From sequence record NC_054912.1: a DNA stretch of 64,000 nt; one strand, given 5' to 3'. The stretch comes from Escherichia phage vB_EcoM_F1. Shown piece by piece: positions 3,362-29,552 of this stretch. Position numbers and translations under genes: made by a program. How positions within the stretch are numbered: position 1 is the first letter of the stretch; every line of letters begins with the position of its first letter. The notes below the pieces were generated by a model. That model saw only the letters and a program-made list of their open reading frames with translations, was not told the DNA's origin and searched no databases.

Positions 3362-5178
3362 TATCCTAGCATCCAATCTTTACGGAGTTCAGGGTCGTTA
3401 CCCATGAGCATTTCAAATAGTTCTTTCCAATTTTCAGGAAGTTTAACTACGTCGTACACAGGGTTTTGAATCATTTCTTTATATTCATCCCGCTGAAGTG
3501 AGCCCAATCCCTTGATGTATCGAATACTATGCTTAGGCAGTGTATCTTTAGCTTCTTCATACTCAGCTACAGTATAAAACCATTTTTGAGTTTTGCCAAT
3601 TTGTGCAATAATTACAGGCGTTTTAACAAAGCGAATACGTCCTTGTTCAAACAATTCAGGCCAATTACTAAAGAAAGCAAGCAAAGCCGGATAAATACTT
3701 CCAAGACCGTCGTGATCTGCGTCAGTCATAATTGCAATATTACGATAGTTCGTATTCTCTGCCTTTTCACCAAGAACTAGACCAGTGATTGCGCAAATAT
3801 CAAATAGTTCTTTGTTTTTAAGCATATCAGCATATGACATACCCCAACTGTTGAGAACTTTACCACGTAATGGATAACCACCATGAAGTTCTTTATCACG
3901 AACATCAATAAGATATCCGATAGCAGAATCACCCTCAGTCAAGAAAAGAGTAGTGTCAGCATCTTTACCACAAAGATTCGCTTTGATATGTTTATGAACC
4001 TTAGCTTTAGAAGCCTTTTTAGCTGCTTTAGTTTCTGCTGCTTTTTCTGCCGCCAATTTACGAGCCAAAGCAGCTTCAATAATCGGCATTAGAATTGCTT
4101 CATTATTTAGAATAGCGCGTGAAATCTTTTTAGCATCAAGTTGAATATGACTACGAATTTCGCCAAATGGAGAAGTCAAACGCTCTTTAGTTTGAGAATC
4201 AAATCGCATGTTTTTCATATCACGAACAAACATGACGATAGTCAAACATTCTTTGACACGTGCTTTAGTTACATCAATTTTGAACTTACGTTTGATTTGT
4301 GGAATAAGGTCTTCACAAATATCATCCATAACACAGTCAATGTGATGGCCACCATTCTTAGTGTGAATGTTATTCACATAAGTTAATTGACGAAAACCAT
4401 CCGGTGAACGACCAACTGCAATAGAACAATTTTCTTGTTCTTGAACGATAGCATGCTCATCATATTGGCGTGCATATTTCTTAAAATTACCCTGAACCTT
4501 TTTACCATTAAAGGTAAATTGAATATCAGGATAAACAACAGCAAGTGTCTGGAGACGATCTAGTGTAATGTCAAGATAAACTTGGGACAGCTCATTAGTT
4601 TCAAATGACATAAAATCAGGAATGAAAGTAACACGAGTTCCTTTCCATTTTCCTGGAATAGTTTCCCATGATTTATTTTCCATGCCATTTGAACAACGAA
4701 CTACAATATTATTTTGACCATCGCCAGTTTCACCAACAAACATCACAGAAAAAATGTTAGTTAAACTAGAACCAACACCATTCATACCGCCAGTGACGCG
4801 TTCTTTATCATCACCGAAGTTACCACCTGCTTTTGGAATAGTCCATGCAGCAACAGGACCAGGAATTTCTTCACCGGTAGGTGTTTTAACCATAGCCTGT
4901 GGAATACCACGACCGTTATCTTCAACTGTTACTTGATTGTTTTTAATAGTAACATTAATTTTATTTGCGAATTTAAACTTAGTACGAATACCTTCATCTA
5001 CTGAGTTATCGATAATTTCATCAATAAGCTTAACAAGACCAGGTACATACTGAACACTTTCCCATTTACCAAACAGAAAGCGCTCATGCATTTCATTAGC
5101 AGAAGAGCCAATATACATGCCGCTACGCTTTTTGATATGTTCAATATCGCTCAGAATTTTAATTTCATTCTTAATCAT
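3361..5178 (-). CDS. 39: DNA topoisomerase II large subunit, unsplit form (gene 39)
   Basis: 605-aa product from the ATG at 5178 (track ORF starts one codon upstream at a GTG); GHKL ATPase and TOPRIM-like motifs; N-terminus MIKNEIKILSDIEHIKKRSGMYIGSS recognised. Confidence 0.9.
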   Translation of the reverse strand: MIKNEIKILSDIEHIKKRSGMYIGSSANEMHERFLFGKWESVQYVPGLVKLIDEIIDNSVDEGIRTKFKFANKINVTIKNNQVTVEDNGRGIPQAMVKTPTGEEIPGPVAAWTIPKAGGNFGDDKERVTGGMNGVGSSLTNIFSVMFVGETGDGQNNIVVRCSNGMENKSWETIPGKWKGTRVTFIPDFMSFETNELSQVYLDITLDRLQTLAVVYPDIQFTFNGKKVQGNFKKYARQYDEHAIVQEQENCSIAVGRSPDGFRQLTYVNNIHTKNGGHHIDCVMDDICEDLIPQIKRKFKIDVTKARVKECLTIVMFVRDMKNMRFDSQTKERLTSPFGEIRSHIQLDAKKISRAILNNEAILMPIIEAALARKLAAEKAAETKAAKKASKAKVHKHIKANLCGKDADTTLFLTEGDSAIGYLIDVRDKELHGGYPLRGKVLNSWGMSYADMLKNKELFDICAITGLVLGEKAENTNYRNIAIMTDADHDGLGSIYPALLAFFSNWPELFEQGRIRFVKTPVIIAQIGKTQKWFYTVAEYEEAKDTLPKHSIRYIKGLGSLQRDEYKEMIQNPVYDVVKLPENWKELFEMLMGNDPELRKDWMLG

Positions 5179-5230
5179 CACTTATCCTCGTTTGGTTTCG
5201 GGAATATTATACTCCAATAATCATAAAGCT

Positions 5231-5248
5231 AAAGGCCCGAAGGCCTTT
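5231..5248 (-). terminator. GC stem-loop (aaaggcc-cgaa-ggccttt), T-rich on both sides
   Basis: perfect 7-bp stem with CGAA/UUCG loop between gene 39 start and upstream gene end. Confidence 0.45.
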
Positions 5249-5508
5249 TATTTAAAACGAATAGTCGAATCCTTGAAGAATAGTCCAGAACATACTGTTC
5301 CTTCTACTTTCTGCCCAGTAGGTCCAATAGCACGAAATCCAGTATGCTGGAAATCATTTTCAGAGCAACCAAACCAATTGTATCCAGTGATTTCAATATT
5401 AGTAAACCCACTTGAAGACAAAACTTTGGTTGCATTATCAGCATCAGTACATCCTACTAAAGACACTGCTAATACTAATGCTGCAATAGAACGATTAACA
5501 TATTTCAT
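5248..5508 (-). CDS. predicted lipoprotein (signal peptide with LVGC lipobox)
   Basis: 86-aa ORF, N-terminus MKYVNRSIAALVLAVSLVGC. Confidence 0.6.
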   Translation of the reverse strand: MKYVNRSIAALVLAVSLVGCTDADNATKVLSSSGFTNIEITGYNWFGCSENDFQHTGFRAIGPTGQKVEGTVCSGLFFKDSTIRFK

Positions 5509-5510
5509 AA

Positions 5511-5687
5511 TTACCCTTTAAGTAAGTCGTAAAATCCACCGTTCACATGCTTAGGAGCGGAAACTAACCGAATAGCAATCCGATGACAATCAGGACATAC
5601 ATCAGTATCCCTTTCAGAAATTTTCTTGATTTTTTCATATTCTTTTGCGCAGTCTTTGGATTGACATTTATAATCATAAAGAGGCAT
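5511..5687 (-). CDS. small zinc-ribbon protein (CxxC..CxxC, FmdB-like)
   Basis: 58-aa ORF MPLYDYKCQSKDCAKEYEKI...CPDCH found by manual translation; below the 60-aa track cutoff. Confidence 0.5.
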   Translation of the reverse strand: MPLYDYKCQSKDCAKEYEKIKKISERDTDVCPDCHRIAIRLVSAPKHVNGGFYDLLKG

Positions 5688-5689
5688 AA

Positions 5690-6103
5690 TTATTCCTTAA
5701 AGTGAGCTTTCAACATCTGATACAAGGACCATGCCTGTTCATTATTTTCAATAGTAACTTTCATGATCGGGAATTCAGATGGTTCAGTTACTGGTGCAGG
5801 GTCTTCCTGCTCTTCAGCAGCCTGATATGGATTTTCCACTTCATTAAAGAACTCGGCTTCGTTGCTAGAAAGCCAGATAAAGTTTTCGTCAATGACTGTA
5901 CCTCGTGATGAATATCCAACTATGCCAGTAGATGTCACAATTTTAGTAGGACGCCCGTAATAGTCAACATCTAAAATTTTAAAAGGTTCCATACCTAAAC
6001 GCCGCGCATAGATTCCGTTATCAGTATGGTCTTTAATAAAATTTTCTTGAGCTTGTTTATTTTTGAATTGATACCATTTATTAACTTCAAATTTAATAGC
6101 CAT
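5690..6103 (-). CDS. hypothetical protein
   Basis: track ORF 5690..6121 trimmed to ATG at 6103 (track start is TTG); ATG overlaps upstream stop. Confidence 0.5.
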
Positions 6104-6321
6104 TAATAAATTTCCTTCCAATAAGTTGTGCCATTTTCAGTAATTTCACGAAATACACCATAAATTGGTTGTTTATCACCGACTTTCTCATACACATAAA
6201 CAGAAGTCAAGTGAGTAAACTTGCTAGTATGTTCCTTTTGAACTACTACCAAATCTGGATCGAATAATACATCTTCAAATTCATCATTAGTGCAATTCTG
6301 AACAATTTTACGTTTCATCAT
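6103..6321 (-). CDS. hypothetical protein (72 aa)
   Basis: ORF with ATG start; same strand, tightly packed. Confidence 0.5.
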
Positions 6322-6418
6322 AATTTCCTCATTAATTGAACATTGGAGCGATGCGTTTCAGAAGAGTATCAGCGCACCTTTAACGAATTTCCATTTTATT
6401 CTTCAAGTTGTTTTCTGT

Positions 6419-6461
6419 ATCAGTAGTTGATATTGATATAGTACCATAATCAACTACTGAT
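6419..6461 (-). repeat. 13-bp perfect inverted repeat (atcagtagttgat / atcaactactgat) flanking a TGGTACTATA -10-like element
   Basis: seen directly; arm sequence also recurs downstream of other early promoters. Confidence 0.5.
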
Positions 6462-6491
6462 GTATATAGTTTTATGAAAAAATTTTAAACT

Positions 6492-6989
6492 TTATGCATA
6501 GAGAGCATTGCTATAGTGTTTAATCCAACTTTCAGGAATGACTTTGTATGTTCCTAAAAATACCACATTGTACAGCTTAACACCATCTTCTACCCATTGA
6601 TCGGTAATGTATGCACACATAGCGCGAGTACGATGTTTTTGAACAACCCCTTCCTCATCTTCGGTAAATTCGAATTCATAAGGAGCAACGAACTTGATAG
6701 CTTGACCGAGTTTCCACTTAAAGTCTACACCTACATGCGAAGTATCAATCGTTTCAATTCCTTTAGCAGGAACAGCTTTCAAAAACACAGATTCAAGAAA
6801 TTTCGCGCGAACATAACCAAACTGGGGTTTAGACTTTCCATCTTTAGGAATGATACGCACTTTTACTTCAGAATCTTCATCTTTAACGCCATGTTTAAGC
6901 TGAATGCTTACAATTTCGACCAATTTTCCTGCTGCTTTAGAACGGGATTTATCAGATACACGAGCAATTTCACCAATATTAATAATCAT
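6492..6989 (-). CDS. hypothetical protein (165 aa), paralog of 7066..7611
   Basis: shares TDQW[VI]EDGV.L.NVV motif with the neighbouring ORF. Confidence 0.55.
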   Translation of the reverse strand: MIINIGEIARVSDKSRSKAAGKLVEIVSIQLKHGVKDEDSEVKVRIIPKDGKSKPQFGYVRAKFLESVFLKAVPAKGIETIDTSHVGVDFKWKLGQAIKFVAPYEFEFTEDEEGVVQKHRTRAMCAYITDQWVEDGVKLYNVVFLGTYKVIPESWIKHYSNALYA

Positions 6990-7065
6990 AGTTATCTCTC
7001 ACCTGTTAAAAAGATTTTATACTCCACAGGACCATTATACTCTGGTCCCAAGAGTTTGTAAACTA

Positions 7066-7611
7066 TTAATTCAAAATAGCTACCACCGCACTACGAGGTA
7101 CTACACTAAAATCTCCTACATGGACAACGTTCAGAAGCTCAACACCATCTTCAATCCACTGGTCTGTTACCCAACCACAGATAGGATTATCAAAAGGACG
7201 ACGGATAGACACAGCAGCACACAACAGGTCTGTAGGGTCTTGTTCTTCAACTTCTTGGAACAGGATGAACTCATCTTCATAAACCAGGTTTTTCTTTATT
7301 TTGTTATTATCTAACCGGCGACCGTGGATGACGTAAGATTTGTCAAACCACTCACTTTTGGCAAATTCTTCAACAATAAATTCGCCTTCGCCAAAAACAT
7401 CAGTCAGAGTTTTATGACCAGAAATCAAGGCATTAGTTTTAATTTTAGGTTCAACCAGTTTGTAGGTTTTGCCGATTTCAATAGCGGTAGTCATAGTAGG
7501 TTCCTTAATTTCCAGTGGTTTAACAGGGCATACATAAGTGCTTACAACATCAAAATCAATCAGTTTAGCTACCGGATTTGGTATGTATTCAGGATTATAA
7601 TTAAATTTCAT
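7066..7611 (-). CDS. hypothetical protein (181 aa), paralog of 6492..6989
   Basis: shared C-terminal motif with neighbour. Confidence 0.55.
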   Translation of the reverse strand: MKFNYNPEYIPNPVAKLIDFDVVSTYVCPVKPLEIKEPTMTTAIEIGKTYKLVEPKIKTNALISGHKTLTDVFGEGEFIVEEFAKSEWFDKSYVIHGRRLDNNKIKKNLVYEDEFILFQEVEEQDPTDLLCAAVSIRRPFDNPICGWVTDQWIEDGVELLNVVHVGDFSVVPRSAVVAILN

Positions 7612-7613
7612 AA

Positions 7614-8114
7614 TTATCTCATTTCAATAAAATCTACGAGTTCAGCATGCGATTTGCGGAACATTACTTGGTGCCCACCAATGATAACTTCATCTTCAGG
7701 AACTTCGTATACAGCGAGATAAAATCCTTTAGAAGATAATTCTTCCCGCTCTTCTCGTGTGAACCATCTCATCATATCATATTCGCTAGCGAAAGCAAAA
7801 TGATAAAGACCTATAAACCATCCTGGAATATGATATTCTACTCCAACATAATCTTTCTTGAACTTAGTATTAATTACTATATTAGCGTTTTTAACTAATA
7901 GTTTATCTTCGTGTGGTAAAGGAATTCTTTTATTATTATCGCTATGATGCATAAAATTAGGTCTGTCATAACCTACGTGTAATAGCCACTCTTCGCTCCA
8001 TGAATCTATTATACTCCTGTACGGCGTTATTTGAACACAAAGATTTCGACGTATTGTTATAGCATCTTCATTATTAAGAATACTAAAAGATGATTCAACA
8101 CGATAAATTTTCAT
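7614..8114 (-). CDS. hypothetical protein (166 aa)
   Basis: ORF with ATG; early promoter immediately upstream. Confidence 0.5.
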   Translation of the reverse strand: MKIYRVESSFSILNNEDAITIRRNLCVQITPYRSIIDSWSEEWLLHVGYDRPNFMHHSDNNKRIPLPHEDKLLVKNANIVINTKFKKDYVGVEYHIPGWFIGLYHFAFASEYDMMRWFTREEREELSSKGFYLAVYEVPEDEVIIGGHQVMFRKSHAELVDFIEMR

Positions 8115-8138
8115 TTTATTATCCTCAGTAGCTATGGT

Positions 8139-8171
8139 GTTATAATACCATAACTAACCGAGGAAGTAAAC
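8139..8171 (-). promoter_or_regulatory. T4-type early promoter
   Basis: minus strand GTTTACttcctcggttagttaTGGTATTATAAC upstream of 7614..8114. Confidence 0.45.
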
Positions 8172-8177
8172 AACTTT

Positions 8178-8861
8178 TTATCGTTTTGTTGGAAGAGACA
8201 GAGGATCGCACTCTTCCTCTGACGGAGCATCTTCAAGACCCATAGCGTATCGCAAAGCATACTTCATCATCAGGATGTCTTTCGCACAGTCATGAATAGA
8301 ATTATGCGCAACGAATCCATCTAAAGTTCCTTTTGGAAGAGGACACGTGGTCATATCACGAACAAGGAGAAGTGCTTCAATTCTAGTACGAATATCACGC
8401 TGATTCCAGAATTTACATGGTTCTAACTTAAATGTGTCAAGCTCATTCTCAGAAACGCCGTTAAGACGTTGAATATCACGAATGAGATCGACTAAAATTG
8501 GAAAATCAAACGACATTCCACGGCACCAGCCTTGAGATTTCCAAGGATCGATATTATGTGCATTGATGTAATCATTAAATTTTGCAATACCATCAATGGT
8601 GCTTACATCTTCATCTGATGGTGCAATATTTTTTCTAGCTTCAGGTGATTGATTTTTCCACCATTCGATAGTGCTTTTAGTAAAAAGACGATGTCCTTTT
8701 TGGCTTTTTAAATCAAATTTGATTTTAATGCCACGTGAAACTAGTTCATCGAATGTTTCAACTACTTCTGGATTAGGGTCAAAAGCAATTACAGCCAAAT
8801 CAATAACCGCTGCTTTTTCACCACTTCCCATTGTTTCAAAATCTATAATAAAATCAAACAT
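8178..8861 (-). CDS. dexA: exonuclease A (3'-5' DEDD-type exonuclease)
   Basis: 227-aa ORF, N-terminus MFDFIIDFETMG recognised as T4 DexA; length matches. Confidence 0.85.
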   Translation of the reverse strand: MFDFIIDFETMGSGEKAAVIDLAVIAFDPNPEVVETFDELVSRGIKIKFDLKSQKGHRLFTKSTIEWWKNQSPEARKNIAPSDEDVSTIDGIAKFNDYINAHNIDPWKSQGWCRGMSFDFPILVDLIRDIQRLNGVSENELDTFKLEPCKFWNQRDIRTRIEALLLVRDMTTCPLPKGTLDGFVAHNSIHDCAKDILMMKYALRYAMGLEDAPSEEECDPLSLPTKR

Positions 8862-9103
8862 TAAATTTTCCTTGCTAAATCGCGAATTTGACCTACAGTA
8901 TAGTCTTGAATATAAACTTTATTAATGGGCTCATCAATAAATTTTGCCACAGATTCAATATCTTTTTGTATTTCTTCAAGACTGTATACTATCTTTGAAG
9001 CTTTTTCGCGAATAGTAATATTTTCAGGACCTGGATTTTCTTCAATGACATCTTTAACACTTGTCATAAGAGATTTAAACTGCCACCAACTTAATTCAAT
9101 CAT
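8861..9103 (-). CDS. hypothetical protein
   Basis: track ORF 8861..9136; internal ATG at 9103 avoids long overlap with upstream gene; start uncertain. Confidence 0.4.
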   Translation of the reverse strand: MIELSWWQFKSLMTSVKDVIEENPGPENITIREKASKIVYSLEEIQKDIESVAKFIDEPINKVYIQDYTVGQIRDLARKI

Positions 9104-9356
9104 TAATAACCGCCTTATAAAGATGGCTAATTTCACCTAAAATGTAATCACTGATTGTAACAGTTTTTACTTCACCACAAAAGAATTCTAACGCAATCAA
9201 ATCTCGTTCAATTTCTTCCAATTGAAGCATTAACTTACTAGATTCAATTTTTACAGTTTTGCGATTTTTGCTATAAGCTATTTCATAAATTTCGCTTACT
9301 TTATCTTGAAGAAGATAAAACTGATCTTTAGTTATTTCCACGAATAGCTTCCTCAA
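9096..9356 (-). CDS. hypothetical protein (86 aa)
   Basis: ORF in track. Confidence 0.45.
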   Translation of the reverse strand: MRKLFVEITKDQFYLLQDKVSEIYEIAYSKNRKTVKIESSKLMLQLEEIERDLIALEFFCGEVKTVTISDYILGEISHLYKAVIND

Positions 9357-9362
9357 ATTTAA

Positions 9363-10682
9363 TCATACATAAAATACATCATAACGACCACGGGTAACAC
9401 CAACATAAAGAAGTTGTTGGGCCAATTCAGCGTCTGCATAATGAATACAAGGCGTATAAATGAAAGCACGGTCTACAGACATACCCTGTGCTTTATGGAA
9501 TGTTGATGCAGGAAGTGCTTTCACTTTATTAAACTGTGATTTAGCATCCCAAAAATCACTCCATGGAGCTTTTCCACCTTTGTTCCAATTTTTATAAGTT
9601 TCTGCTGTTTTACCTAAAAATAGGTTAAACTTATACAGCTCTTCATCAGATGAAATTATTTTAATCTTTTCACGATAATATTCATCATCGCCGTAAGTTT
9701 CTACTGTTAAATCCCAATGACGAATTAGATATTCTCCAGAAACACCACGAGCTTTAACAAACGTCGATGTATACTCTGCTTCTATAATACGAACTAACTG
9801 TCCGTTATTAAAAATAATTTCTGACACAGGCTTTCCATCAATTTTATATGTTTTAATTAATGGTTCCTGCATTACAATAATTTCACCAACAATAAAATCT
9901 TTATCAGTTTCAAAAATCTTTTTACGAATAATGCTATTTAACTTATCAACAGATTTATTCGTAAATGCCATTACGCGATTTTCAAACAAATCATCTAAAG
10001 ATTTGACGATTGAAAAATAATTTACCATAAAATCGCGTAAAGCGGTATCACCAGTAAATCCACGTACTCCATGCCCGTCAACAACTTTATCATAAATCCA
10101 CTTACCGTTACGAACGTCAGTAGCTACATCAATAATAGGAGCATTACTGCGTTTAACTTCAGTGAGTTCGCACTGATAAAAATCTTTATGTGTAAAGAAT
10201 GGACTGATATAAGCAGTGTTTTCTCCTGGGTCAACAGGTCTAATTTGCTTATTATCCCCTATTCCAATTATAGTACACCAAGGTGGAATAGTTGAAAGCA
10301 GAATTTTAAATAGCTTTCTATCATACATTGACACTTCATCGCAGATTAATACTCTGCATTTAGCTAAATCTGGTACTTCCTTCTGCTCAAAGAGGACATT
10401 TTCTTCATATGTTACTGGGTTAATTTTAAGAATGCTGTGAATAGTACTCGCTTCTTTCCCCGACAGTTTTGAAAGAATCTTTTTAGCTGCATGTGTAGGA
10501 GCTGCTAAAATAATACCAGTTTCACCCGTAGATATTAAAGCTTCAATGATGAACTTAGTAAGAGTAGTCTTACCAGTACCAGCAGGTCCATTAATAGTCA
10601 CATGATGTTTCTTTTCTTTGATAGCCCTCATAACAATGTTAAAGGCATTTTTCTGACCTTCGGTCAAATCATCAAATGTCAT
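9363..10682 (-). CDS. dda: Dda SF1B DNA helicase
   Basis: 439 aa; Walker A GPAGTGKT; sequence recognised as T4 Dda. Confidence 0.9.
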   Translation of the reverse strand: MTFDDLTEGQKNAFNIVMRAIKEKKHHVTINGPAGTGKTTLTKFIIEALISTGETGIILAAPTHAAKKILSKLSGKEASTIHSILKINPVTYEENVLFEQKEVPDLAKCRVLICDEVSMYDRKLFKILLSTIPPWCTIIGIGDNKQIRPVDPGENTAYISPFFTHKDFYQCELTEVKRSNAPIIDVATDVRNGKWIYDKVVDGHGVRGFTGDTALRDFMVNYFSIVKSLDDLFENRVMAFTNKSVDKLNSIIRKKIFETDKDFIVGEIIVMQEPLIKTYKIDGKPVSEIIFNNGQLVRIIEAEYTSTFVKARGVSGEYLIRHWDLTVETYGDDEYYREKIKIISSDEELYKFNLFLGKTAETYKNWNKGGKAPWSDFWDAKSQFNKVKALPASTFHKAQGMSVDRAFIYTPCIHYADAELAQQLLYVGVTRGRYDVFYV

Positions 10683-10990
10683 CGTAAATTCCCTGCAATT
10701 GGTATACTAACAATACGCCCAGTATCTAAAATTCGCCGATATAATCTTTGTGTGTCTACATCAGGCTTAACATGTTTAACTTCTATTTTATTAAACCAAA
10801 ACTTGCGTGGAGTCTCAACTAATCTCGGAATTCCCATACCTAAAGCTAGTCGATACTGCTCTTTAAGAGTGGTAAATACTTTATCAGCAATCTCCCTTTC
10901 AAAAAATACAGCAGGGCGATGTTCATCAAGAGGAACTGGCGCCGTAAATCCATCTTTATCTCTATAAACTATCGCATATACATAAACCAT
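10679..10990 (-). CDS. hypothetical protein (103 aa)
   Basis: ORF with ATGA overlap to dda. Confidence 0.5.
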   Translation of the reverse strand: MVYVYAIVYRDKDGFTAPVPLDEHRPAVFFEREIADKVFTTLKEQYRLALGMGIPRLVETPRKFWFNKIEVKHVKPDVDTQRLYRRILDTGRIVSIPIAGNLR

Positions 10991-10991
10991 A

Positions 10992-11738
10992 TTATCCTCG
11001 GATAAGTTTAAAAATTGAACAATCTAGCGGGTATCCTCTTTTTAATTTGAGTTTATCAATAAATGACAAGTTTTGAAACCGCTCTACACCTTGAATAATT
11101 TTATCACACATATCATATTGCATTTCTGCTTCTGACAACTTTTTCACAGTTTTCCAATCCGAGCCTTTAAGAAGAACGTTCAGTTTAACAACTTCAGCGC
11201 CTTCTGCTATGCGAGAACCATCAATACGAGCTTTAAGTGCTATAATCGTTAGCTTAACGTCAGAAGTTTGTTTTGATTTAGAAAGCTGAGAAATGTGCTC
11301 AATTCGGTTTTCACGTTTTTTCTGTATAGCTTTAATTTGATTATAAGTCTTTTTGATTTTAGCCCATTTCTTTTCATCTAAATTTAGTTTATGAACTTTT
11401 TTCGCAGATGAACGACCAATTCGCAGAGCAAATAAATCACGCTTTTCAATCAACTCCTCTAAAGTATAATCAGAACGAAATGTATTATACTTTTTCTTTA
11501 CTGCAATAACATTCCCTTTAATGTATCCAACGTTATTATCAAAACGTTCTAATGATAATTTCTCTCCTTCAATACGATTATCAAAAGGTTCTCCCGAGTA
11601 AGCACAAACTTTTTGGTCTAAAATGTTCTTAATGTAATTGAAGTCTAAGTTAAAATCTTTAGAACGTCTTTTTGCAGATGCCTGAGTATGCTCTAGACGA
11701 CGTTTAATTTTACGAATTTGATTATTAGACAGCTTCAT
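10992..11738 (-). CDS. Srd-like protein (candidate)
   Basis: 248-aa ORF in the T4 srd position between dda and modA; identity by synteny only. Confidence 0.45.
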   Translation of the reverse strand: MKLSNNQIRKIKRRLEHTQASAKRRSKDFNLDFNYIKNILDQKVCAYSGEPFDNRIEGEKLSLERFDNNVGYIKGNVIAVKKKYNTFRSDYTLEELIEKRDLFALRIGRSSAKKVHKLNLDEKKWAKIKKTYNQIKAIQKKRENRIEHISQLSKSKQTSDVKLTIIALKARIDGSRIAEGAEVVKLNVLLKGSDWKTVKKLSEAEMQYDMCDKIIQGVERFQNLSFIDKLKLKRGYPLDCSIFKLIRG

Positions 11739-11773
11739 ATTTTTCTCACATCTTACGGACGATTTAATACTTT

Positions 11774-11806
11774 ATTACTATAACATTTTTACCTTAACTT
11801 GTAAAC
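11774..11806 (-). promoter_or_regulatory. T4-type early promoter
   Basis: minus strand GTTTACaagttaaggtaaaaatgTTATAGTAAT upstream of srd-like gene. Confidence 0.4.
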
Positions 11807-11863
11807 AACTTTATGTAAAAATGCTTTAAAAATTTCATGGTATAATGAATCTAAGTCCTTCCA

Positions 11864-12406
11864 TTATAGATTAAATCCTTCAAAATCAAGAGTATAGATA
11901 GTGTATGTTGAATACTTTTTGTACTCATATCTATCTGCAATTCTAAATACACTTCCAGCTGGTATCATTACTTCTTGTTCATCTGAAACTAATTCCATAT
12001 TACGATAACGATGACTATCCGGAAACTTAAAGTTTGGATTGTATTCTTTACAGCGTAGAGCTTTTATAGCATACTCCTGGAAATTGAATATCATAGGAGC
12101 TTTGAATTCAAAAATAACTTGTGTGTTATACTCTAAACCGGAAGCAAAATGTAGAGCTATATTTTTATCATATGAAGCTGATACTACTTTATCAAATGTA
12201 ATAATATCAATTCCTTGATTTAACACCTGCTTAGTCTCAGCTGGAACACCTCTCCAAAGAGGTTTATCGTTTGGTTCCAAACGAGATTTGATTATTTCAT
12301 TTAACCAAGTATGGTCATCTGGTTTATTAGTAATACAATGCAATTTCAGATAAATTAAACCCTTCAGAAAGTAATTCTTCACGAATAGAAGCACGCACCG
12401 ATGCAT
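11864..12406 (-). CDS. modA: ModA-like ADP-ribosyltransferase; N-terminus appears frameshifted
   Basis: R-S-E ART motifs (LWRGVPA, VVSASYD, EQEVMIPAG); a 42-codon ORF starting at ATG 12455 (ATGA with modB stop) lies in another frame and terminates at 12327. Confidence 0.6.
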   Translation of the reverse strand: MHRCVLLFVKNYFLKGLIYLKLHCITNKPDDHTWLNEIIKSRLEPNDKPLWRGVPAETKQVLNQGIDIITFDKVVSASYDKNIALHFASGLEYNTQVIFEFKAPMIFNFQEYAIKALRCKEYNPNFKFPDSHRYRNMELVSDEQEVMIPAGSVFRIADRYEYKKYSTYTIYTLDFEGFNL

Positions 12407-12451
12407 CCATTGATTTTATTTTAAAATCTTTTAGTTGCATTACTGAGTATT

Positions 12452-13075
12452 TCATTCAACTACCTCAATATCATAAACTTTAAATGTTCCAAACGAATCG
12501 TGTAATTTTTCTTTTGAAATAGAAGTTATTCTATACTTTCCAATTGGAATCATCCATTCTTGTTCACGCACAATCATCATTAAGTTATCAGTACGCTCTG
12601 AATCTAGCCCATCAGTATCTTCATACGTGTACTTAAACTCAGTATTAGGAGAAGAAAGTATAATATCGCTGATATGGTCAGAATAATTAAAAGCTTTATC
12701 AGTTTTTAAGCGAAATATTATTTCAGTGAAATACTCAACATAAGAAAAACCACATGCTGTGTGCAAACTAGTAGTAAATGAATCTACCCTGTTCGTTGAA
12801 AACACTTCTCCAACTTGTAAATCTTTAATGAGTTCTTTTGTCGATTTTGATATACCACGATATAACTGATATGGTGATTTAGTTAAATGCTTTTTAACGA
12901 TTTTATTCAACTGCCGATGAAGAGCTTCATTCTTTTTGGCTTCCATACATTGCCAAAGAACAGACTGCTCAAAATCAGTAAATTTTTCACAGACCTTTTT
13001 ATACATATCATATTGAAAATCAACGCTTTCAGCTTTTATAGATAACTGTTCAACATCTGCAAGATTAATAATCAT
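12452..13075 (-). CDS. modB: ModB ADP-ribosyltransferase
   Basis: 207 aa, ART motifs LYRGISK / FSTNR / EQEWMIP. Confidence 0.75.
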   Translation of the reverse strand: MIINLADVEQLSIKAESVDFQYDMYKKVCEKFTDFEQSVLWQCMEAKKNEALHRQLNKIVKKHLTKSPYQLYRGISKSTKELIKDLQVGEVFSTNRVDSFTTSLHTACGFSYVEYFTEIIFRLKTDKAFNYSDHISDIILSSPNTEFKYTYEDTDGLDSERTDNLMMIVREQEWMIPIGKYRITSISKEKLHDSFGTFKVYDIEVVE

Positions 13076-13099
13076 GATAGCCTCCGTATACTTCAGAAG

Positions 13100-13131
13100 C
13101 TATCATATCATCGTTAGAAAGGAAAGTAAAC
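13100..13131 (-). promoter_or_regulatory. T4-type early promoter
   Basis: minus strand GTTTACtttcctttctaacgatgATATGATAG upstream of modB. Confidence 0.4.
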
Positions 13132-13142
13132 AACTTTTTGAA

Positions 13143-13325
13143 TTATTTTGCCCAGGGAGCCCAGGGCGGAGGGTCAAGATGGTATGAAGCTAGTTCTTCT
13201 AGAAGAGCATCTGGGGCTTCAATTCCATAATTCTGTAATACTATACGGTACTCTTTCTTATAATCACTAGAATCATTCTGGTTATTCGTAGAATGATTAT
13301 CTTCTAACATCTCAAATAAATCCAT
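13143..13325 (-). CDS. hypothetical protein (60 aa)
   Basis: track ORF. Confidence 0.4.
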   Translation of the reverse strand: MDLFEMLEDNHSTNNQNDSSDYKKEYRIVLQNYGIEAPDALLEELASYHLDPPPWAPWAK

Positions 13326-13333
13326 ATTAATTC

Positions 13334-13804
13334 CTAGCGATAAAAACCAAAATGACGATTAGCTTCAGCAATCTTTCTTTCTTCTTCGGACATTCTCCAG
13401 CGTAGTCCAACATCAAAATGAGCCCAGACCATCCTAACAAATGCATTTATATCTTTAATATCTTCAATAATGAATGTTTTACTTTTAGAAGGTTGACTCG
13501 CTAATTTAACTTTATCGTCTTCAAACATGTCAAAAAGACCATATTCATGAGCTCTTTTATAGCCTTTAATAGTTAAAGCTTCAGAAGAAGAAAACGGTGA
13601 ATCAGTATTCTGCAAAATATCTTCAGTATGCTTTATAATTAGAATAATATTTTCTGGATATTTTCTTTCTTTTATATCTTTAATTAAAATATCCGGATTT
13701 TCTGCTAAAGGAATAATTAATGAGCATTCTTTATCAAGCGTATTTACTGATTTACCTTCTTTAGACATAAATTCTATTGAATAATGTTTTGCTACTTCAA
13801 TCAT
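13334..13804 (-). CDS. hypothetical protein (156 aa)
   Basis: track ORF. Confidence 0.5.
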
Positions 13805-13957
13805 GTGATTTCCTTTTGCCTACTAATGGACCATCGGGAATTTTGTTTTCCTGGATATATTTCTCATTTTCTTCCATCATTTTACTGCCGATTTTAAGAA
13901 GCAAATCCAGTGCTTCATTTGCTTTTGCTTTAGCCTCTTCTAATGTCATATCTTTGT

Positions 13958-14161
13958 TCATGATTTATCCCCATAGATGTCTCTCATCAATTTAAGCGCT
14001 GAGCGCTCTAATTTCTTTTCTTTCTCAGCGCTAATCATTGATTTCATCCATTCTTCCGATTCGTTCTGCATTTCTTTATTTGCTTGTTCAACCCAACCAT
14101 CATCAATATACATTGAGTTTGGTCTATTAAACCATTCAAGTATTTTCTTCAGAACTTTCAT
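13958..14161 (-). CDS. hypothetical protein (67 aa)
   Basis: track ORF. Confidence 0.4.
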
Positions 14162-14633
14162 TTGTTTTACCTAAAACGACAGTAGGAGCATCGTCAAATT
14201 CATGAATTTTTAGCAAATTTGGATGTAAACTATTCCATACAGAAGAAATAAAGTATGATAAAGCGTCTTCACTCGCAATTATAAATTTATTTCCTTTATC
14301 TATTTTCCAACTATATAATGAATCGTACGAATAGAAAGATAAAGGTTTATCATTATATTGTTCTGCGCTAACATTAATGTATTCGGATTTAGTAAATGCT
14401 TCAATTGCTCTAAACGGAATATTTGGCACAGTTTCAATAATACCAATCTTTTTAAGTTTTATTTCAGCATCTTCTGGAACTGGCATTGAAACGAAATTTT
14501 CTACGAGATACATTGGGTCACAATAACCCTTATCAATCATTACTGCTACTGTAATTGGAACATCTTTAGCAAACGACATACTATTACTGCTAATATACAT
14601 TTCAAACAAAATAGCTTCCATAATTTTCCTCAA
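14136..14633 (-). CDS. hypothetical protein (165 aa)
   Basis: track ORF, ATGA overlap with upstream gene. Confidence 0.5.
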
Positions 14634-14965
14634 TCACAAGACGTAGATGAACAACTAGAATCACAAGAACTTCCACATGAATCGCCTGCCCATACATGAA
14701 CAGGAACATTCGTATCATATGAATCAGAACTAGACTGTGTATTAGATGGTGCAGACGTAGGTACTGACCAGCGCCAAGGATTTTTATAATATTCTTGGGC
14801 TTCTTCATAAGTCATAGTAACTGCTTCTACTGTTCCATCTCCCATATAAACATACTCAACTACAGTTAAAGGAAGGTAGTCATTTGAAATAGGAACTACA
14901 CCTTCTCCAGGAGTTGTAGAGAAAAAATCTGTGAACAAACTTTTAAACCAATTAAAGATAAACAT
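14630..14965 (-). CDS. hypothetical protein with Cys/Ser-rich C-terminal tail
   Basis: 111 aa ending [18 protein letters not shown]. Confidence 0.5.
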
Positions 14966-15177
14966 TACAAAAAGCCTCTTTGAAATTCGACTCTTTGAAA
15001 TCCACCCCAGTCAGTATATCGCATTTCAGCATTGAACTCGACTGAACCATCTGCATGCATCATGAATGAATGCGTGACGATATCACAATCCCAGCTTTTC
15101 ATACCCCATTTATCAGAGATAGCTTTATCAAGAACCTTCTGGAGGTCTTCATTTGGTTTAATCCAACGATTTAACAT
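14965..15177 (-). CDS. hypothetical protein (70 aa)
   Basis: track ORF downstream of an early promoter. Confidence 0.5.
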   Translation of the reverse strand: MLNRWIKPNEDLQKVLDKAISDKWGMKSWDCDIVTHSFMMHADGSVEFNAEMRYTDWGGFQRVEFQRGFL

Positions 15178-15203
15178 AGTGCTCTCCTCTATAAGATAAT
15201 TCT

Positions 15204-15233
15204 ATTATACCACACTCATTTTGATATGTAAAC
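15204..15233 (-). promoter_or_regulatory. T4-type early promoter
   Basis: minus strand GTTTACatatcaaaatgagtgTGGTATAAT. Confidence 0.5.
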
Positions 15234-15247
15234 TGCAAAAACGAAAA

Positions 15248-15269
15248 AAGGAACCCCGAAGGATTCCTT
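15248..15269 (-). terminator. stem-loop with U-run, likely terminator after soc
   Basis: aaggaacc-ccgaa-ggattcctt (one bulge); minus RNA followed by uuuuuucguuuuu. Confidence 0.5.
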
Positions 15270-15276
15270 AAATTAT

Positions 15277-15534
15277 TTAACCACCTACACCTGATGCAGG
15301 TGTAACAGTCCAAAGACCTTCATTTGCAGTAATCCAATCAGCACGCTGATTTTCTTCATATACTGTTGAATACGCTGCTTTTTCTGAAGGAAATGTCTGA
15401 TAATGGGCCCCAGAAATTTTGTGAACATCAGAATAAAGAGGGAAAGCTACAGAAATTTCTTTACCCTGAATTTTACCACCATCAACTACTTGGTCAAATG
15501 TTTTGATATTAACATAACCGCGAGTACTAGCCAT
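15277..15534 (-). CDS. soc: small outer capsid protein Soc
   Basis: MASTRGYVNIKTF...SVAFPLYSDVHKISGAHYQTFPSEKAAYSTVYEENQR recognised as T4 Soc. Confidence 0.9.
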   Translation of the reverse strand: MASTRGYVNIKTFDQVVDGGKIQGKEISVAFPLYSDVHKISGAHYQTFPSEKAAYSTVYEENQRADWITANEGLWTVTPASGVGG

Positions 15535-15564
15535 GTAATTCTCCTTTTATTTAAATTACATGAT

Positions 15565-15572
15565 TATTTATA
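15565..15572 (-). promoter_or_regulatory. T4 late promoter (TATAAATA) for soc
   Basis: exact TATAAATA on minus strand about 31 nt upstream of soc ATG. Confidence 0.6.
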
Positions 15573-16257
15573 CATCTTCTTTTCTGAATAAATAAATTAA
15601 ATTCTTAAGAGCTGAACTTGTTACATCATATTTTCCTTTAAGCGCCTTTACAACCGGGCCTGTTGCTGGTTTACCTAAAGAAACCCATAACTCATGTATT
15701 TCGCTTTTAAGCGGTTCATGCCAATGCGGCGCTTTTCTTTGCGCCCTTGAAGTTCCTTCTGAAATCTTTTTATTTCCGCCATTCGAATAAAACTTTTTCA
15801 TTACTTCAGATTGCCGAGCTTTTCGTTCTGCTCTATTTTGGGCTATACGTTGTGAATTCTTCATCCGAGTTTTTGTTTCAGGATTGTTTAATCTAAGTTT
15901 ATGTTCTAATCGTTGTTGCTCAGTCCATTTTCTTCCTTCTCCACCCTGACCACCAGGAGAAATATTAATGCAAGTATCTGGGTGTTTACGTTTTAATGCA
16001 GATATTAGCTCGCGTTCAACTTCATATGATTTTTCTCTAGAACCATGGCATTTTGACCAACGTATTTTATAATTAAAACCATACTTACGATATATGTTCC
16101 ATAGTATTTTGCCTGACCCCGGATATTTATCATCATATGGATTTACAATAAATGATTCATGTTTCCCAGCGTACCAAAAGACGCCTTTCGGCGTCCTAAC
16201 TTTTACTATATATGTTCTATAAAATTTTTGTTTAATACCCATTATCTTGACGTTCAA
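15568..16257 (-). CDS. segF: GIY-YIG homing endonuclease-like protein (SegF-like position between 56 and soc)
   Basis: 229-aa ORF, N-terminal YIVKV...FWYAGKH GIY-YIG-like motif, basic C-terminal region; position as in T4. Confidence 0.55.
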   Translation of the reverse strand: MNVKIMGIKQKFYRTYIVKVRTPKGVFWYAGKHESFIVNPYDDKYPGSGKILWNIYRKYGFNYKIRWSKCHGSREKSYEVERELISALKRKHPDTCINISPGGQGGEGRKWTEQQRLEHKLRLNNPETKTRMKNSQRIAQNRAERKARQSEVMKKFYSNGGNKKISEGTSRAQRKAPHWHEPLKSEIHELWVSLGKPATGPVVKALKGKYDVTSSALKNLIYLFRKEDV

Positions 16258-16747
16258 AATTATGTTTATTTTTCAAATAATAAAGTTTAAAGATTTCTTC
16301 CGCATTCATTCCAAGGCCAGCAAACATATTTAATACGAAATGAAATATATCCACAAGCTCAAATTTAATTTCGAGCTGATCTTCTGGGGACATTTCATCA
16401 ATGCGTTTTTCTTGCGCTTCAATATAACGTGCTTTCCATTTTTTCCAAACTGCCGATGCATCTTTTTCACCACGTGACATTTCACCAAGAGAAGTCAGAA
16501 GTTCGCGGAATTCATCATCAATACAGTCTTTTTGTTCACGCATCCAAGAAACAACATCACCGGCAGTTTCTAATTTATCTGGATGATAACAGTATTCGCG
16601 GTCATTTGCTAAACGAATCTGCAGAGATTTCTGCATGTCAAGCATTACCTGCAGCGGGTCTTTTTCATCACCGAGAATATCCCAGTATTCATTTTGAGCT
16701 TTATCAGCGCCTTCGATCAGTTGACTACATTCGTTAAAGTAAGCCAT
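16232..16747 (-). CDS. 56: dCTP pyrophosphatase (gene 56)
   Basis: 171 aa from ATG at 16747 (track ORF begins at an upstream start); MAYFNECSQLIEGADKAQNEYWDILG recognised. Confidence 0.85.
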   Translation of the reverse strand: MAYFNECSQLIEGADKAQNEYWDILGDEKDPLQVMLDMQKSLQIRLANDREYCYHPDKLETAGDVVSWMREQKDCIDDEFRELLTSLGEMSRGEKDASAVWKKWKARYIEAQEKRIDEMSPEDQLEIKFELVDIFHFVLNMFAGLGMNAEEIFKLYYLKNKHNFERQDNGY

Positions 16748-16807
16748 TATTTTTCCTTTCAATTCATTAATAAGTTAAATAATTATATCATTTGAATATG
16801 TAAGCAA

Positions 16808-17596
<789 letters not shown>

Positions 17597-17698
17597 TCAT
17601 TTATTGCAGCAAAAAACGAATTATATAATTCTTCATCATATGTATTTGATAGTAATACTAACACGTTTTGCGATAAATATTAATTTAAAGGAGGACAT

Positions 17699-17899
17699 AT
17701 GGTACAAAAATTAATGGCACTTGTTAATGCCATAAAAGGTAATAAGAAACGTATAGCTTTTACTATTTCTGCTATGATAGGAATTTTACTTTGGAATTTT
17801 GTTTTATCGCCAGTTGCTATTGCTCATGGCGTTAGTATTCCAGTAGTTACTCTTGATACATTCGTAGATTTAGCATTTGCTTTAGTTGGGTTAATTTAA
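17699..17899 (+). CDS. candidate small membrane protein (66 aa, two hydrophobic segments) on the opposite strand
   Basis: AAAGGAGGA Shine-Dalgarno about 4 nt before ATG; lies in the dam-61 intergenic gap; stop overlaps gene 61 stop. Confidence 0.45.
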   Translation: MVQKLMALVNAIKGNKKRIAFTISAMIGILLWNFVLSPVAIAHGVSIPVVTLDTFVDLAFALVGLI

Positions 17900-18924
17900 A
17901 TCTTAGCATATTTAGATAACCGCATTTTAGCCATCAACCCCTGGGCAATATTATTTTTCATATATTCCATAATTTGTTCAGGGGTTGCACCTTCCTTTCT
18001 AATCATATCATTAACATCTTTTGATTTCCAGGGAGATTTATCCCAAAACATAACCCTTTCTCCTGCATCAACTAATTTAGTCATTCGTTTGATAGTGTCA
18101 GGGTGACGAGGTTCATTATCTAAAACCCACACTCGTCTATCTTTAAATGGAACAACTTCTAGGTCTAATTGACCACCCGTAATAGCTATACCATTTTCAA
18201 TAAAAAGTGAATCTATAGGTCCTTCTAGAACATATACATCACCATCTTTAACCCGTTCGACTCCATAGATTTTTGTTGCCTCAGGATAAGCTTTGATGGT
18301 GATATATTTTTGAGGAGCATCTTTCTTTAATGCACGTCCTTGAAAAGACTCAGCTTTTCCATTAGCATTATAAATTGGAATAACAAGACGAGGCTCAGAA
18401 ATTTCCTTTTTATATGTTCCCGGTGCTATGCTATTAACTAATTTAGGCCATTCGGTTGTAAACCAAAGATATTTCCATTTATCCTTTGGAATACAACGAG
18501 CTTTTACATATTTTATAATTGGATGGTCTTCCGACAGTTTATCTAATCTAACACATGACGGAAGAGATTTAATTATTTTCTTCTCAGGTTGTTTAGGAAG
18601 TTCTTTAGGTTTTTCTACTGGACGACTTTTACCTTTTTCTTTTCTTATTTCAAAGATATACTCACGATATAAATCAGGTTCAAACTCCTTTAAATATATT
18701 CCGATTGGTGCATGATAGTTACAGTTATAACAATGAATATTTCCTTCATTATTATCGCCATAATACCATCCACGGGCTTTATTTTGATCGGTTTTTGAAT
18801 CTCCACAAACGGGACATCTAAACCGTAATTTAAAAGTTGAACTATTATTTACTTGTGCGAATTTAGGTAAATGAGCCAATGCACGGTATGCAAACTCATT
18901 ATCAATCCAAGGTATTGATGACAT
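17896..18924 (-). CDS. 61: DNA primase (gene 61)
   Basis: 342 aa; N-terminal zinc ribbon CPVCGD...CYNC; TOPRIM region; recognised as T4 gp61. Confidence 0.9.
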   Translation of the reverse strand: MSSIPWIDNEFAYRALAHLPKFAQVNNSSTFKLRFRCPVCGDSKTDQNKARGWYYGDNNEGNIHCYNCNYHAPIGIYLKEFEPDLYREYIFEIRKEKGKSRPVEKPKELPKQPEKKIIKSLPSCVRLDKLSEDHPIIKYVKARCIPKDKWKYLWFTTEWPKLVNSIAPGTYKKEISEPRLVIPIYNANGKAESFQGRALKKDAPQKYITIKAYPEATKIYGVERVKDGDVYVLEGPIDSLFIENGIAITGGQLDLEVVPFKDRRVWVLDNEPRHPDTIKRMTKLVDAGERVMFWDKSPWKSKDVNDMIRKEGATPEQIMEYMKNNIAQGLMAKMRLSKYAKI

Positions 18925-18926
18925 TT

Positions 18927-19091
18927 TTACTCTTCTTTTTCTTTAGATTCCTCTTTTTTCTTTTTAGGAATCTGTTCAGGACCTTTATTTACTACAGCAC
19001 CTGATGTTGTTCCAGTAGAGATATTTTCAGGATTACCACCTGAATCTCCAGCAACCATATCTTCTTTAATAAATTCTTTATATGTTTTCAT
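18927..19091 (-). CDS. small Lys/Glu-rich hypothetical protein (54 aa)
   Basis: manually translated MKTYKEFIKEDMVAGDSGGNPENIS...KEKEE; fills the gap upstream of gene 61. Confidence 0.4.
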   Translation of the reverse strand: MKTYKEFIKEDMVAGDSGGNPENISTGTTSGAVVNKGPEQIPKKKKEESKEKEE

Positions 19092-19137
19092 ATTAACCTC
19101 TATTCATAAAAGCATTAAAAATTTGGTCATCAATAGA
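19089..19137 (-). repeat. 49-bp direct repeat, copy 1 (spans stop of 19093..19449 and start of downstream ORF)
   Basis: catattaacctctattcataaaagcattaaaaatttggtcatcaataga; 46/49 identical to copy 2. Confidence 0.6.
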
Positions 19138-19449
19138 TGGAATAGCAACCTTTTCGGCATCATTTAGCAAATCATTAATTTCATCAGATAGCATAACACA
19201 TGTGCCTTTATTTCCTGTAATTGTTACTGCACAATTACGAACGTTTTCTTTATCAAATTTTAGGTTAATATTTTCGTAGTGAAAATCCTTTAATGCCGAA
19301 TATATCTTTAAAATGAAATTGTCTTTTACTACAATAAACCCAACCTCACTATTAAAACGTGGTTCATGGAAACTGTAATAAACCTTTTCATCTATAAAAT
19401 CGTATGAAATTTTTTCCATTTTTAAATATGAAAATTCAGAACTATACAT
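19093..19449 (-). CDS. hypothetical protein (118 aa) with one G.IFV.KDN.I domain
   Basis: shares domain motif and C-terminal tail SIDDQIFNAFMN with the next ORF. Confidence 0.55.
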   Translation of the reverse strand: MYSSEFSYLKMEKISYDFIDEKVYYSFHEPRFNSEVGFIVVKDNFILKIYSALKDFHYENINLKFDKENVRNCAVTITGNKGTCVMLSDEINDLLNDAEKVAIPSIDDQIFNAFMNRG

Positions 19450-19495
19450 ATTAACCTTTATTCATAAAAGCATTAAAAATTTGATCGTCAATAGA
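19447..19495 (-). repeat. 49-bp direct repeat, copy 2
   Basis: catattaacctttattcataaaagcattaaaaatttgatcgtcaataga. Confidence 0.6.
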
Positions 19496-20083
19496 AACTT
19501 TTACTTTAGGCTGTTCTTCAAACGTTAATTCATATCCACATATTACAATTTTGTGATCGATACCAAAATACACAGAAGCAATATTATTAATATTATTTTC
19601 AGTGAAATCTAAATCAACATCAATATCTTTTTGACTAACGCTCAAAGGATAATTAATACGAATAATTCGATTATCTTTAACAAAGATTCCACCGACATAC
19701 TCTGTGCTGCGTTTAAAGTTTACACGTTTCCTAAATGAAAAATATTCAGGCTCTTTATGGGCTCGACTCATAGGGCTTAAAGTGTATTCCGAATATGAAA
19801 TATCAAATCCTACACCTTCAATATGAGCCAAAGTGTCATGATTAAACCAATTATAATCGTATGCCAAATCCATTAAATTGTAATATGTGAAAGGCACCGG
19901 ATTAACATCATATGTTGTACCTTTAAAATCTGCCCAGGCAACGATTTCGTTATCTTTAACAATTACAAAAATTGTGCCAATAAGATATCCACGGTTATTT
20001 TCATCAGGCGTTATATTATAACATTGTGCATCAGGAAATTTACCGTATTTAAACGGTGGATTTTTGTGCATATAATAAATCAT
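19451..20083 (-). CDS. hypothetical protein (210 aa) with two G.IFV.KDN.I domains
   Basis: internal duplication; same C-terminal tail as 19093..19449. Confidence 0.55.
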   Translation of the reverse strand: MIYYMHKNPPFKYGKFPDAQCYNITPDENNRGYLIGTIFVIVKDNEIVAWADFKGTTYDVNPVPFTYYNLMDLAYDYNWFNHDTLAHIEGVGFDISYSEYTLSPMSRAHKEPEYFSFRKRVNFKRSTEYVGGIFVKDNRIIRINYPLSVSQKDIDVDLDFTENNINNIASVYFGIDHKIVICGYELTFEEQPKVKVSIDDQIFNAFMNKG

Positions 20084-20084
20084 A

Positions 20085-20378: not shown

Positions 20379-20404
20379 GATTAATCTCCTCAGTAGTTTA
20401 TGTT

Positions 20405-20437
20405 TATATAGTATCTCAATTTCCAATAAAAGTAAAC
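20405..20437 (-). promoter_or_regulatory. T4-type early promoter upstream of sp
   Basis: minus strand GTTTACttttattggaaattgagaTACTATATA. Confidence 0.45.
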
Positions 20438-20439
20438 AG

Positions 20440-20697: not shown

Positions 20698-20698
20698 A

Positions 20699-20881: not shown

Positions 20882-20910
20882 AACAATCTCCTCATTTAAC
20901 CAACAAGACT

Positions 20911-29550: not shown

Positions 29551-29552
29551 GC

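Follow-up and report, generated by a model that had tools for sequence, protein, structure and literature searches.

Alt modifies one RNA polymerase alpha subunit during infection by T4-like phages. ModA acts on both, ADP-ribosylating their Arg265, and its expression is highly toxic (PMC2988021). The T4 modA gene (603 nt, encoding the NAD:arginine ADP-ribosyltransferase NP_049635.1, of 200 aa) lies in the gene order modB-modA-srd. Deletion of modA from T4 yields viable phage in which the shut-off of early transcription is unchanged (PMC2988021), and T4 phage carrying the ModA E165A substitution have been obtained via genome editing (PMC11404850). The same gene occupies the same position in Escherichia phage vB_EcoM_FN (here FN; MZ170041.1), a member of the genus Tequatrovirus whose source is poultry sewage in Portugal, and in Escherichia phage vB_EcoM_F1 (here F1). 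The window analyzed, 64,000 nt of F1 (NC_054912.1), is 100% identical to FN over the 621 nt around the break in modA, and the coordinates are the same in both. Outside a deletion described below, FN modA differs from T4 modA by 11 substitutions, and the catalytic residues are still encoded. Unlike T4, however, FN has a modA frame that is broken after codon 38, and a single 200-aa product is impossible by standard translation. We consider it highly probable that modA of FN and F1 is a recently inactivated gene, a null allele created by an 11-bp deletion. An earlier, sequence-only reading of the window had proposed a single-nucleotide indel around 12335-12345 that shifts the frame of modA near its N-terminus. 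It suggested that the gene product may be inactive, or may be made by frameshifting or internal initiation.

The features of the locus are collected in Table 1. The modB-modA-srd synteny of T4 is preserved in FN, including the ATGA overlap in which the TGA of modB meets the modA ATG at 12455, and this overlap couples translation from the modA start to that of modB. The modB gene itself is intact: FN ModB is 96% identical to T4 ModB across all 207 aa with no gaps, and a precomputed match to the Pfam family PF26816 (Mod_ADP_RT) exists for the identical modB gene in L013. Promoter-like sites were matched both upstream of modB-modA and between modA and srd. Because srd thus has a promoter-like site of its own, polarity arising from modA should not matter to it, and read-through would not be needed.

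Table 1. Features of the modB-modA-srd region in the window
Feature	Coordinates	Strand	Basis or remark
modB, intact, 207 aa	12452..13075	-	ORF list
modA 5' fragment, 42-codon ORF MKYSVMQLKDFKIKSMDASVRASIREELLSEGFNLSEIALYY	12327..12455	-	ORF list, alignment
Deletion junction, 11 bp AACTTTTAATT (coding strand) missing	12340..12341	.	alignment to intact alleles
modA 3' remnant, codons 43-200 plus stop	11864..12340	-	+1 frame relative to start
Mechanical 180-codon ORF, other frame	11864..12406	-	ORF list
22 'alien' codons of the 180-aa ORF, MHRCVLLFVKNYFLKGLIYLKL	12341..12406	-	out-of-frame reading of modA codons 17-38
srd homolog, 248 aa, intact, downstream neighbor	10992..11738	-	ORF list
Promoter-like site upstream of modB-modA, TTTACT-17-TATGAT with TG	13102..13130	-	consensus scan, pattern match only
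Promoter-like site between modA and srd, TTTACA-17-TATAGT with TG	11777..11805	-	consensus scan, pattern match only

Alignment to intact ModA accounts for both pieces of the gene. Residues 1-38 of the short ORF correspond to ModA 1-38 and residues 23-180 of the long ORF to ModA 43-200, in each case nearly perfectly, and the second match begins at H43. These correspondences are read straight from the sequence and are no statistical pattern. Both fragments are 93-99% identical to the ModA proteins of T4 and other phages. The reference ModA proteins contain the upstream 38 residues and do not start at the internal Met. The 5' fragment retains the native start and native SD, followed by 38 native codons, four frameshifted codons (ALYY), a TAA and then a second TAA. 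The downstream remnant encodes R72 (12253..12251), S96 and E163-Q-E165 (11980..11972). On re-reading, the ORF boundaries and the ATGA overlap were just as first described, and the frameshift near the N-terminus was borne out by the alignment, with the break falling inside 12335-12345. The start of the ART-frame ORF had been correctly recognized as an out-of-frame reading of modA, although the number of such codons is 22 rather than about 20. The length of about 200 aa given for ModA in the sequence-only reading agrees with the T4 protein.

Matches to PF26816 are precomputed for both the 42-aa and the 159-aa products. A local Pfam scan of the modA pieces returned no matches, and the newer PF26816 model is apparently missing from that copy of the database. 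A functional family member would be expected to provide one unbroken ORF, about 200 aa in length, with the conserved N-terminal helix motif (F33...K48); FN modA does not, and FN carries a modA remnant rather than a functional member of PF26816.

The lesion proved to be larger than the single-nucleotide indel first proposed. Alignment to intact modA nucleotide sequences places one clean gap of 11 bp between 12341 and 12340, with flanks that are otherwise identical, and this rules out a one-nucleotide change. The missing bases are nt 116-126 of the gene, within codons 39-42. The region measures 632 nt in all other relatives and 621 nt in FN, and a full ModA of 200 aa is recovered when the 11 nt are put back in silico. 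A 40-mer centered on the junction was found in FN alone among 50,697 phage records (a collection that does not contain F1), and the intact 41-mer at the site is present in 498 phage records. The deletion allele is thus private to one lineage, that of FN and F1.

The boundaries of the deletion, as read from the alignment, show no microhomology. An origin by slipped-strand pairing between direct repeats was considered and rejected: the AATT...AATT pair predicts a loss of 12 bp and the ATTG...ATTG pair a loss of 16 bp, versus the 11 bp observed. Nor does the intact sequence around the site form a notable hairpin (z = -0.10). Apart from the deletion, FN modA differs from the nearest intact allele, that of CHD2BS1, by just two substitutions (V94V and V126I), which argues that the deletion is recent. 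It may have arisen during laboratory propagation since 2007.

Whether the deletion is a genuine feature of the phage DNA can be judged from two data sets, on whose consensus its reality rests. The FN sequence was determined by Illumina MiSeq (2x300) with a TruSeq Nano library, and Geneious was used for its assembly. For F1 (MT682712; 168,410 bp), formerly phiF38E and isolated in 2007, a KAPA HyperPlus library was sequenced at 125x (run SRR12228473), and assembly was again in Geneious (PMC7471389). The exact 42-aa and 159-aa products of FN are present in F1 as F1_0019 and F1_0018. FN (168,411 bp) and F1 also number their genes alike and have in common a second private deletion; a single lineage has been sequenced twice. 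The two come from the same laboratory and were probably derived from the same stock, and thus represent independent sequencing runs rather than independent isolates.

That both GenBank records come from the same laboratory and the same software could be taken to mean that the deletion arose artificially in sequencing or assembly, or represents a minority variant, and that modA is actually intact. It is also an odd coincidence that a second deletion of identical length, 11 bp, occurs elsewhere in the genome. We nevertheless regard an artefact as very unlikely. Two distinct library preparations agree on the sequence, and the Logan assembly of the raw SRR12228473 reads (125x), made separately from the Geneious assembly of the depositors, has a contig with a 4,823-nt stretch that matches window positions 9327..14149 exactly, across the junction. 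These read data had been named beforehand as able to correct the indel; the independent assembly instead reproduces it. A loss of 11 bp in non-repetitive, non-homopolymer DNA with no local hairpin is atypical of Illumina error, and its repetition by two libraries and two assemblers marks it as a genuine feature of the DNA.

The distribution of frame-breaking indels over the genome points in the same direction. FN was scanned against one relative, 215Ecol030PP, over approximately 157 kb of aligned sequence, and the indels listed were those that are uncompensated, frame-breaking, in clean context and inside annotated genes. Five such indels were found: -11 in modA, -11 in an rI.1-like DUF5856 gene, -1 in an A-run in an ORF at approximately 66.6 kb, -1 in an A-run in segD, and +1 in hoc, which has also lost one domain. 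In this comparison all five are in accessory genes and none is in an essential gene, a pattern more consistent with real mutations that are tolerated than with random error. The fragments of the rI.1 gene were found by a look-up of protein clusters. A 16-bp gap at approximately 42245 was examined as a further frameshift and set aside; it marks only an allele boundary, and the C-terminus of FN nrdD is in frame.

The two fragments differ in their prospects for expression. Predicted pairing with the anti-SD is -6.9 kcal/mol at the native modA start and -9.5 kcal/mol at modB; the native start has lost neither its SD nor its coupling to modB, and synthesis of the 42-aa stub is therefore expected. 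Among the out-of-frame codons, four candidate starts lie in the ART frame, ATG 12406, GTG 12394, GTG 12382 and TTG 12343, with anti-SD pairing of -0.9, -3.6, -3.0 and -3.3 kcal/mol, respectively, and the ART-frame remnant has no usable ribosome-binding site. TTG 12343, the start chosen in GenBank for FN1NEW_0018, sits 14 nt upstream of the stop of the short ORF. As in other recent pseudogenes, then, the frame is broken relative to intact orthologs, the lesion recurs in independent data and the remnant is without a start signal.

Bidirectional scanning after termination, with post-termination reinitiation in bacteria in the absence of an SD, was reportedly described by Adhin and van Duin in 1990. 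By such reinitiation at TTG 12343, a trace of N-terminally truncated ModA could in principle be made. It might therefore be argued that a truncated or chimeric ModA, produced from the downstream frame by this route or by internal initiation at ATG 12406, retains some activity, and that the allele is attenuated rather than null. The ART frame is uninterrupted from 12406 onward and carries every invariant catalytic residue, the deletion has put a pre-existing TTG in frame with H43, and some distant family members are short, starting a few residues before the conserved helix. We judge this unlikely, since no candidate start is preceded by a usable SD and all of them lie inside an actively translated ORF or just upstream of its stop. 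The products would also be defective in structure: that begun at TTG would be without helices 1-2 and the first half of helix 3, the latter element being kept in 17 of 18 family members, and that begun at ATG 12406 would have 22 unrelated residues in place of those helices. The remnant shows no secondary decay, an observation that could be held to favor continued use; a recent deletion explains it equally well, and the absence of further decay fits either very recent loss or continued use.

Restoration of full-length ModA by programmed +1 frameshifting or transcriptional slippage within 12327..12406 was also considered. The two frames overlap by approximately 80 nt, and a +1 shift anywhere in the overlap would yield a near-full-length fusion. 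By visual reading of the sequence and its codons, no +1 slippery motif or long homopolymer of A or T was seen in 12327..12406, and no notable DNA or RNA structure was found around the frame overlap. Furthermore, the broken arrangement is private to one lineage, and the 498 relatives have a single ORF, which leaves such a site no evolutionary history as a programmed signal. Any fusion would still lack codons 39-42 of the conserved helix. The chance that ModA is restored in this way appears negligible. The suggestion in the sequence-only reading that ModA is made by frameshifting or internal initiation thus found no support, the lesion being confined to one lineage, with no slippery site seen and with ART-frame starts that pair at only -0.9 to -3.6 kcal/mol. 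A downstream product of either process would, in addition, miss half of a helix conserved in the family. The alternative offered in the same reading, that ModA may be inactive, is the best-supported outcome.

The importance of the interrupted helix is apparent from the ModA family, for which a deep search recovered only 21 representatives. An alignment of 18 sequences has invariant K48, R72, G73, V94, S96, F107, Y113, E163, E165 and M167. The R-S-E residues among them (R72, S96 and E163-x-E165) are all present in the downstream frame of FN. The first motif conserved across the family, F-x3-EQS-x-LW-x-C-x-N-x-K, corresponds to ModA F33...K48 and is found in 17 of the 18 members, including the shortest. 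An AlphaFold2 model of intact ModA based on the family alignment (mean pLDDT 94.5, pTM 0.87) places helices at residues 5-15, 18-30, 35-46 and 53-60, ahead of a strand at 70-73 that carries R72. The deletion cuts the third of these helices (35-46), which is next to the invariant K48, in its middle; the stub ends in ...SEIALYY, and a remnant initiated at the TTG would begin M-HCITNK. A catalytic fragment deprived of half of this conserved element has most likely lost its function, even if it is translated.

The model also bears on whether the 42-aa stub and a separate C-terminal fragment might associate non-covalently as a split enzyme. The stub supplies the first two helices of a compact fold and a portion of the third and, to judge from its SD pairing, is predicted to be efficiently translated from the native start. 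Such an enzyme would need translation of the C-terminal fragment, which the candidate starts do not support. The break falls inside a helix and not between domains, and four native residues are gone and four wrong ones gained. We therefore consider a split enzyme highly improbable.

A search of the PDB by sequence found no homolog that would serve as a solved structure of ModA. The best Foldseek matches to the model of the intact protein are C3 exoenzyme, iota toxin Ia, CDTa, VIP2, Certhrax and Vis. Like the ModA model, these toxins have the R-S-E ART fold, and the match covers almost all of the protein, with approximately 220-230 columns aligned, the N-terminal helices included. The sequence identity to ModA is, however, just 10-16%, with a TM-score of approximately 0.4-0.5, and the toxins target Rho, actin and other proteins, whereas ModA targets the alpha subunit of RNA polymerase. 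These enzymes inform the likely role of the N-terminal helices but are silent on the lesion of FN itself.

Inactivation by deletion is the reading that we prefer, and its proposed course is simple. With nt 116-126 (codons 39-42) deleted, ribosomes initiating at the modB-coupled ATG at 12455 would read 38 native and four wrong codons and stop at 12327. The remaining 158 codons, with all of the catalytic residues, would then lie in the +1 frame with no ribosome-binding site and would most likely go untranslated. We infer that active ModA protein is absent and predict that infection by FN proceeds without the ADP-ribosylation by ModA of Arg265 on both RNA polymerase alpha subunits. FN nevertheless grows, with a latent period of 15 min and a burst of 71. 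The deletion would be tolerated because ModA is dispensable, and it is tolerated with Alt and ModB both intact: the ORF for FN Alt runs through 682 aa without a break and includes the E575-x-E577 motif. The expected outcome is the same as for the engineered T4 modA deletion and the ModA E165A phage, namely viable phage without ModA activity. The FN allele differs from these in being a spontaneous N-terminal frameshift in an environmental or laboratory-propagated isolate, whereas the T4 mutants carry a whole-gene deletion or a catalytic point mutation.

We regard the FN/F1 allele as an ordinary natural knockout of a known dispensable gene, one that requires no new mechanism. Its value is practical. 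FN/F1 is a natural modA-deficient T4-like phage that is already under evaluation for veterinary phage therapy, and it offers a ready-made strain, obtained without engineering, in which the role of ModA could be probed through the modification state of the alpha subunit, the shut-off of early and host promoters, and fitness on a variety of hosts. The locus also presents a problem of annotation. Both pieces of modA are called hypothetical in GenBank, where the 42-aa stub is listed as hypothetical protein FN1NEW_0019 (identical to the F1 protein F1_0019), and RefSeq gives the 159-aa remnant the name 'RNA polymerase ADP-ribosylase', which implies a working enzyme. A correction of these annotations is called for.

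FN and F1 are not alone among phages in having a disrupted modA. In OR062527.1 (166,610 bp), a GAA to TAA change introduces the nonsense mutation E158* upstream of E163/E165, and this lesion was verified at the DNA level. The protein clusters around ModA also include products predicted from large phage contigs, namely fragments of 40 aa, 51 aa, 54 aa (phage ELT1), 67 aa (in 6 contigs), 119 aa and 157 aa, a fragment of 135 or 130 aa that comes with a C-terminal piece of 44 aa, and, in vB_EcoM-UFV10, a 233-aa form with an internal duplication of 33 aa. The DNA-level check among these disrupted alleles covers OR062527 only, and some of the fragments could be contig-end truncations. These Tequatrovirus lesions are independent events in the same dispensable gene, in otherwise complete phage genomes or contigs, although they differ from that of FN in position and in type of mutation. 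Loss of modA is thus a repeated event in nature, to which the FN allele adds one more case. That several lesions arose independently agrees with the dispensability of ModA.

Such recurrence could instead indicate that loss of modA is selected in T4-like phages, rather than being neutral decay, with FN/F1 one of several adaptive knock-downs. On this account, some hosts could select against the action of the highly toxic ModA on RNA polymerase, or a host defense could sense it, and the FN/F1 allele might leak traces of truncated enzyme through reinitiation at TTG 12343. The E158* allele of OR062527, the ELT1 fragment and the 67-, 119- and 135-aa alleles would then be further knock-downs of the same kind. 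We consider recurrent selection quite unlikely.

The FN lineage carries a second private deletion, in a gene for a DUF5856 protein that lies downstream of rI and is rI.1-like; its T4 counterpart is described as an "uncharacterized 14.6 kDa protein". Sequence comparison showed that exactly 11 bp, ACACAAAGCAT, are missing in FN; the deletion can be placed equally well as ACAAAGCATAC, with a 2-bp AC microhomology. The deletion frameshifts the 128-aa gene, leaving pieces of 52 aa and 86 aa. Among the records of the phage collection, from which vB_EcoM_F1 is absent, the junction was found only in FN. The 128-aa gene is intact in 10 other contigs. The 52-aa and 86-aa products are also present in vB_EcoM_F1. 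The two private deletions of this lineage, in modA and in the DUF5856 gene, are of equal length, 11 bp each.

FN and F1 appear to be one phage deposited twice under different names; the window corresponds to positions 1..64000 of the FN record, MZ170041.1. The genome of vB_EcoM_FN (species "Tequatrovirus effone") is 168,411 bp and that of vB_EcoM_F1 (MT682712 and its RefSeq copy; earlier name phiF38E) is 168,410 bp. Both come from one laboratory, and they share their gene numbering and both of the private 11-bp deletions.

Lesions of FN genes outside the window were scored relative to phage 215Ecol030PP. Besides the 11-bp losses, three accessory genes are disrupted in FN by this comparison, in which no essential gene was found to be hit. 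A 16-bp frameshift that the DNA alignment seemed to show in nrdD was rejected: the FN C-terminus is in frame (…GNPNERGFNLGKNKEIMHRVKHQ* in FN, whereas 215Ecol030PP has …GTPSVVPWNLGKMKEMVKRVKHA*), and the site is an allele boundary between the two phages. The next gene after nrdD in 215Ecol030PP is a mobile endonuclease gene.

Independent, natural lesions of modA were found in other Tequatrovirus genomes (protein clusters P0002-P0017, P0033 and P0034; OR062527.1), and individual alleles are listed in the table.

Disrupted or variant genes in FN and modA alleles of other phages (L008 and L024 are retrieved DNA stretches)
Gene	Genome	Coordinates	Strand	Description
DUF5856 gene	FN	window 58584..58959	-	disrupted; deletion junction near 58838
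nrdD 3' end	FN	window ~42180..42320		allele boundary
ORF homologous to PP328843 67094..67582	FN	MZ170041.1 ~66596 (L008:2596)		1-bp loss in A-run
segD	FN	MZ170041.1 ~94345 (L008:30345)		A7 run shortened by 1 bp
hoc	FN	MZ170041.1 109695..110826 (L008:45695-46826)		one Ig-like domain deleted, plus frameshift (…SGVKKN*)
modA	OR062527.1	L024:1201-1674		E158*, GAA to TAA
modA	ELT1			54-aa fragment
modA	near-complete contigs			67-, 119- and 135-aa fragment alleles
modA	vB_EcoM-UFV10			in-frame duplication of 33 aa spanning EQE motif

In phage CHD2BS1 (MZ234027.1; retrieved stretch L002:10-828), modA.2, modA.3 and modA.4, which are small T4 ORFs, carry the product name [quoted passage not shown]. This is evidently an annotation-transfer error, arising because the gene name collides with that of bacterial modA.
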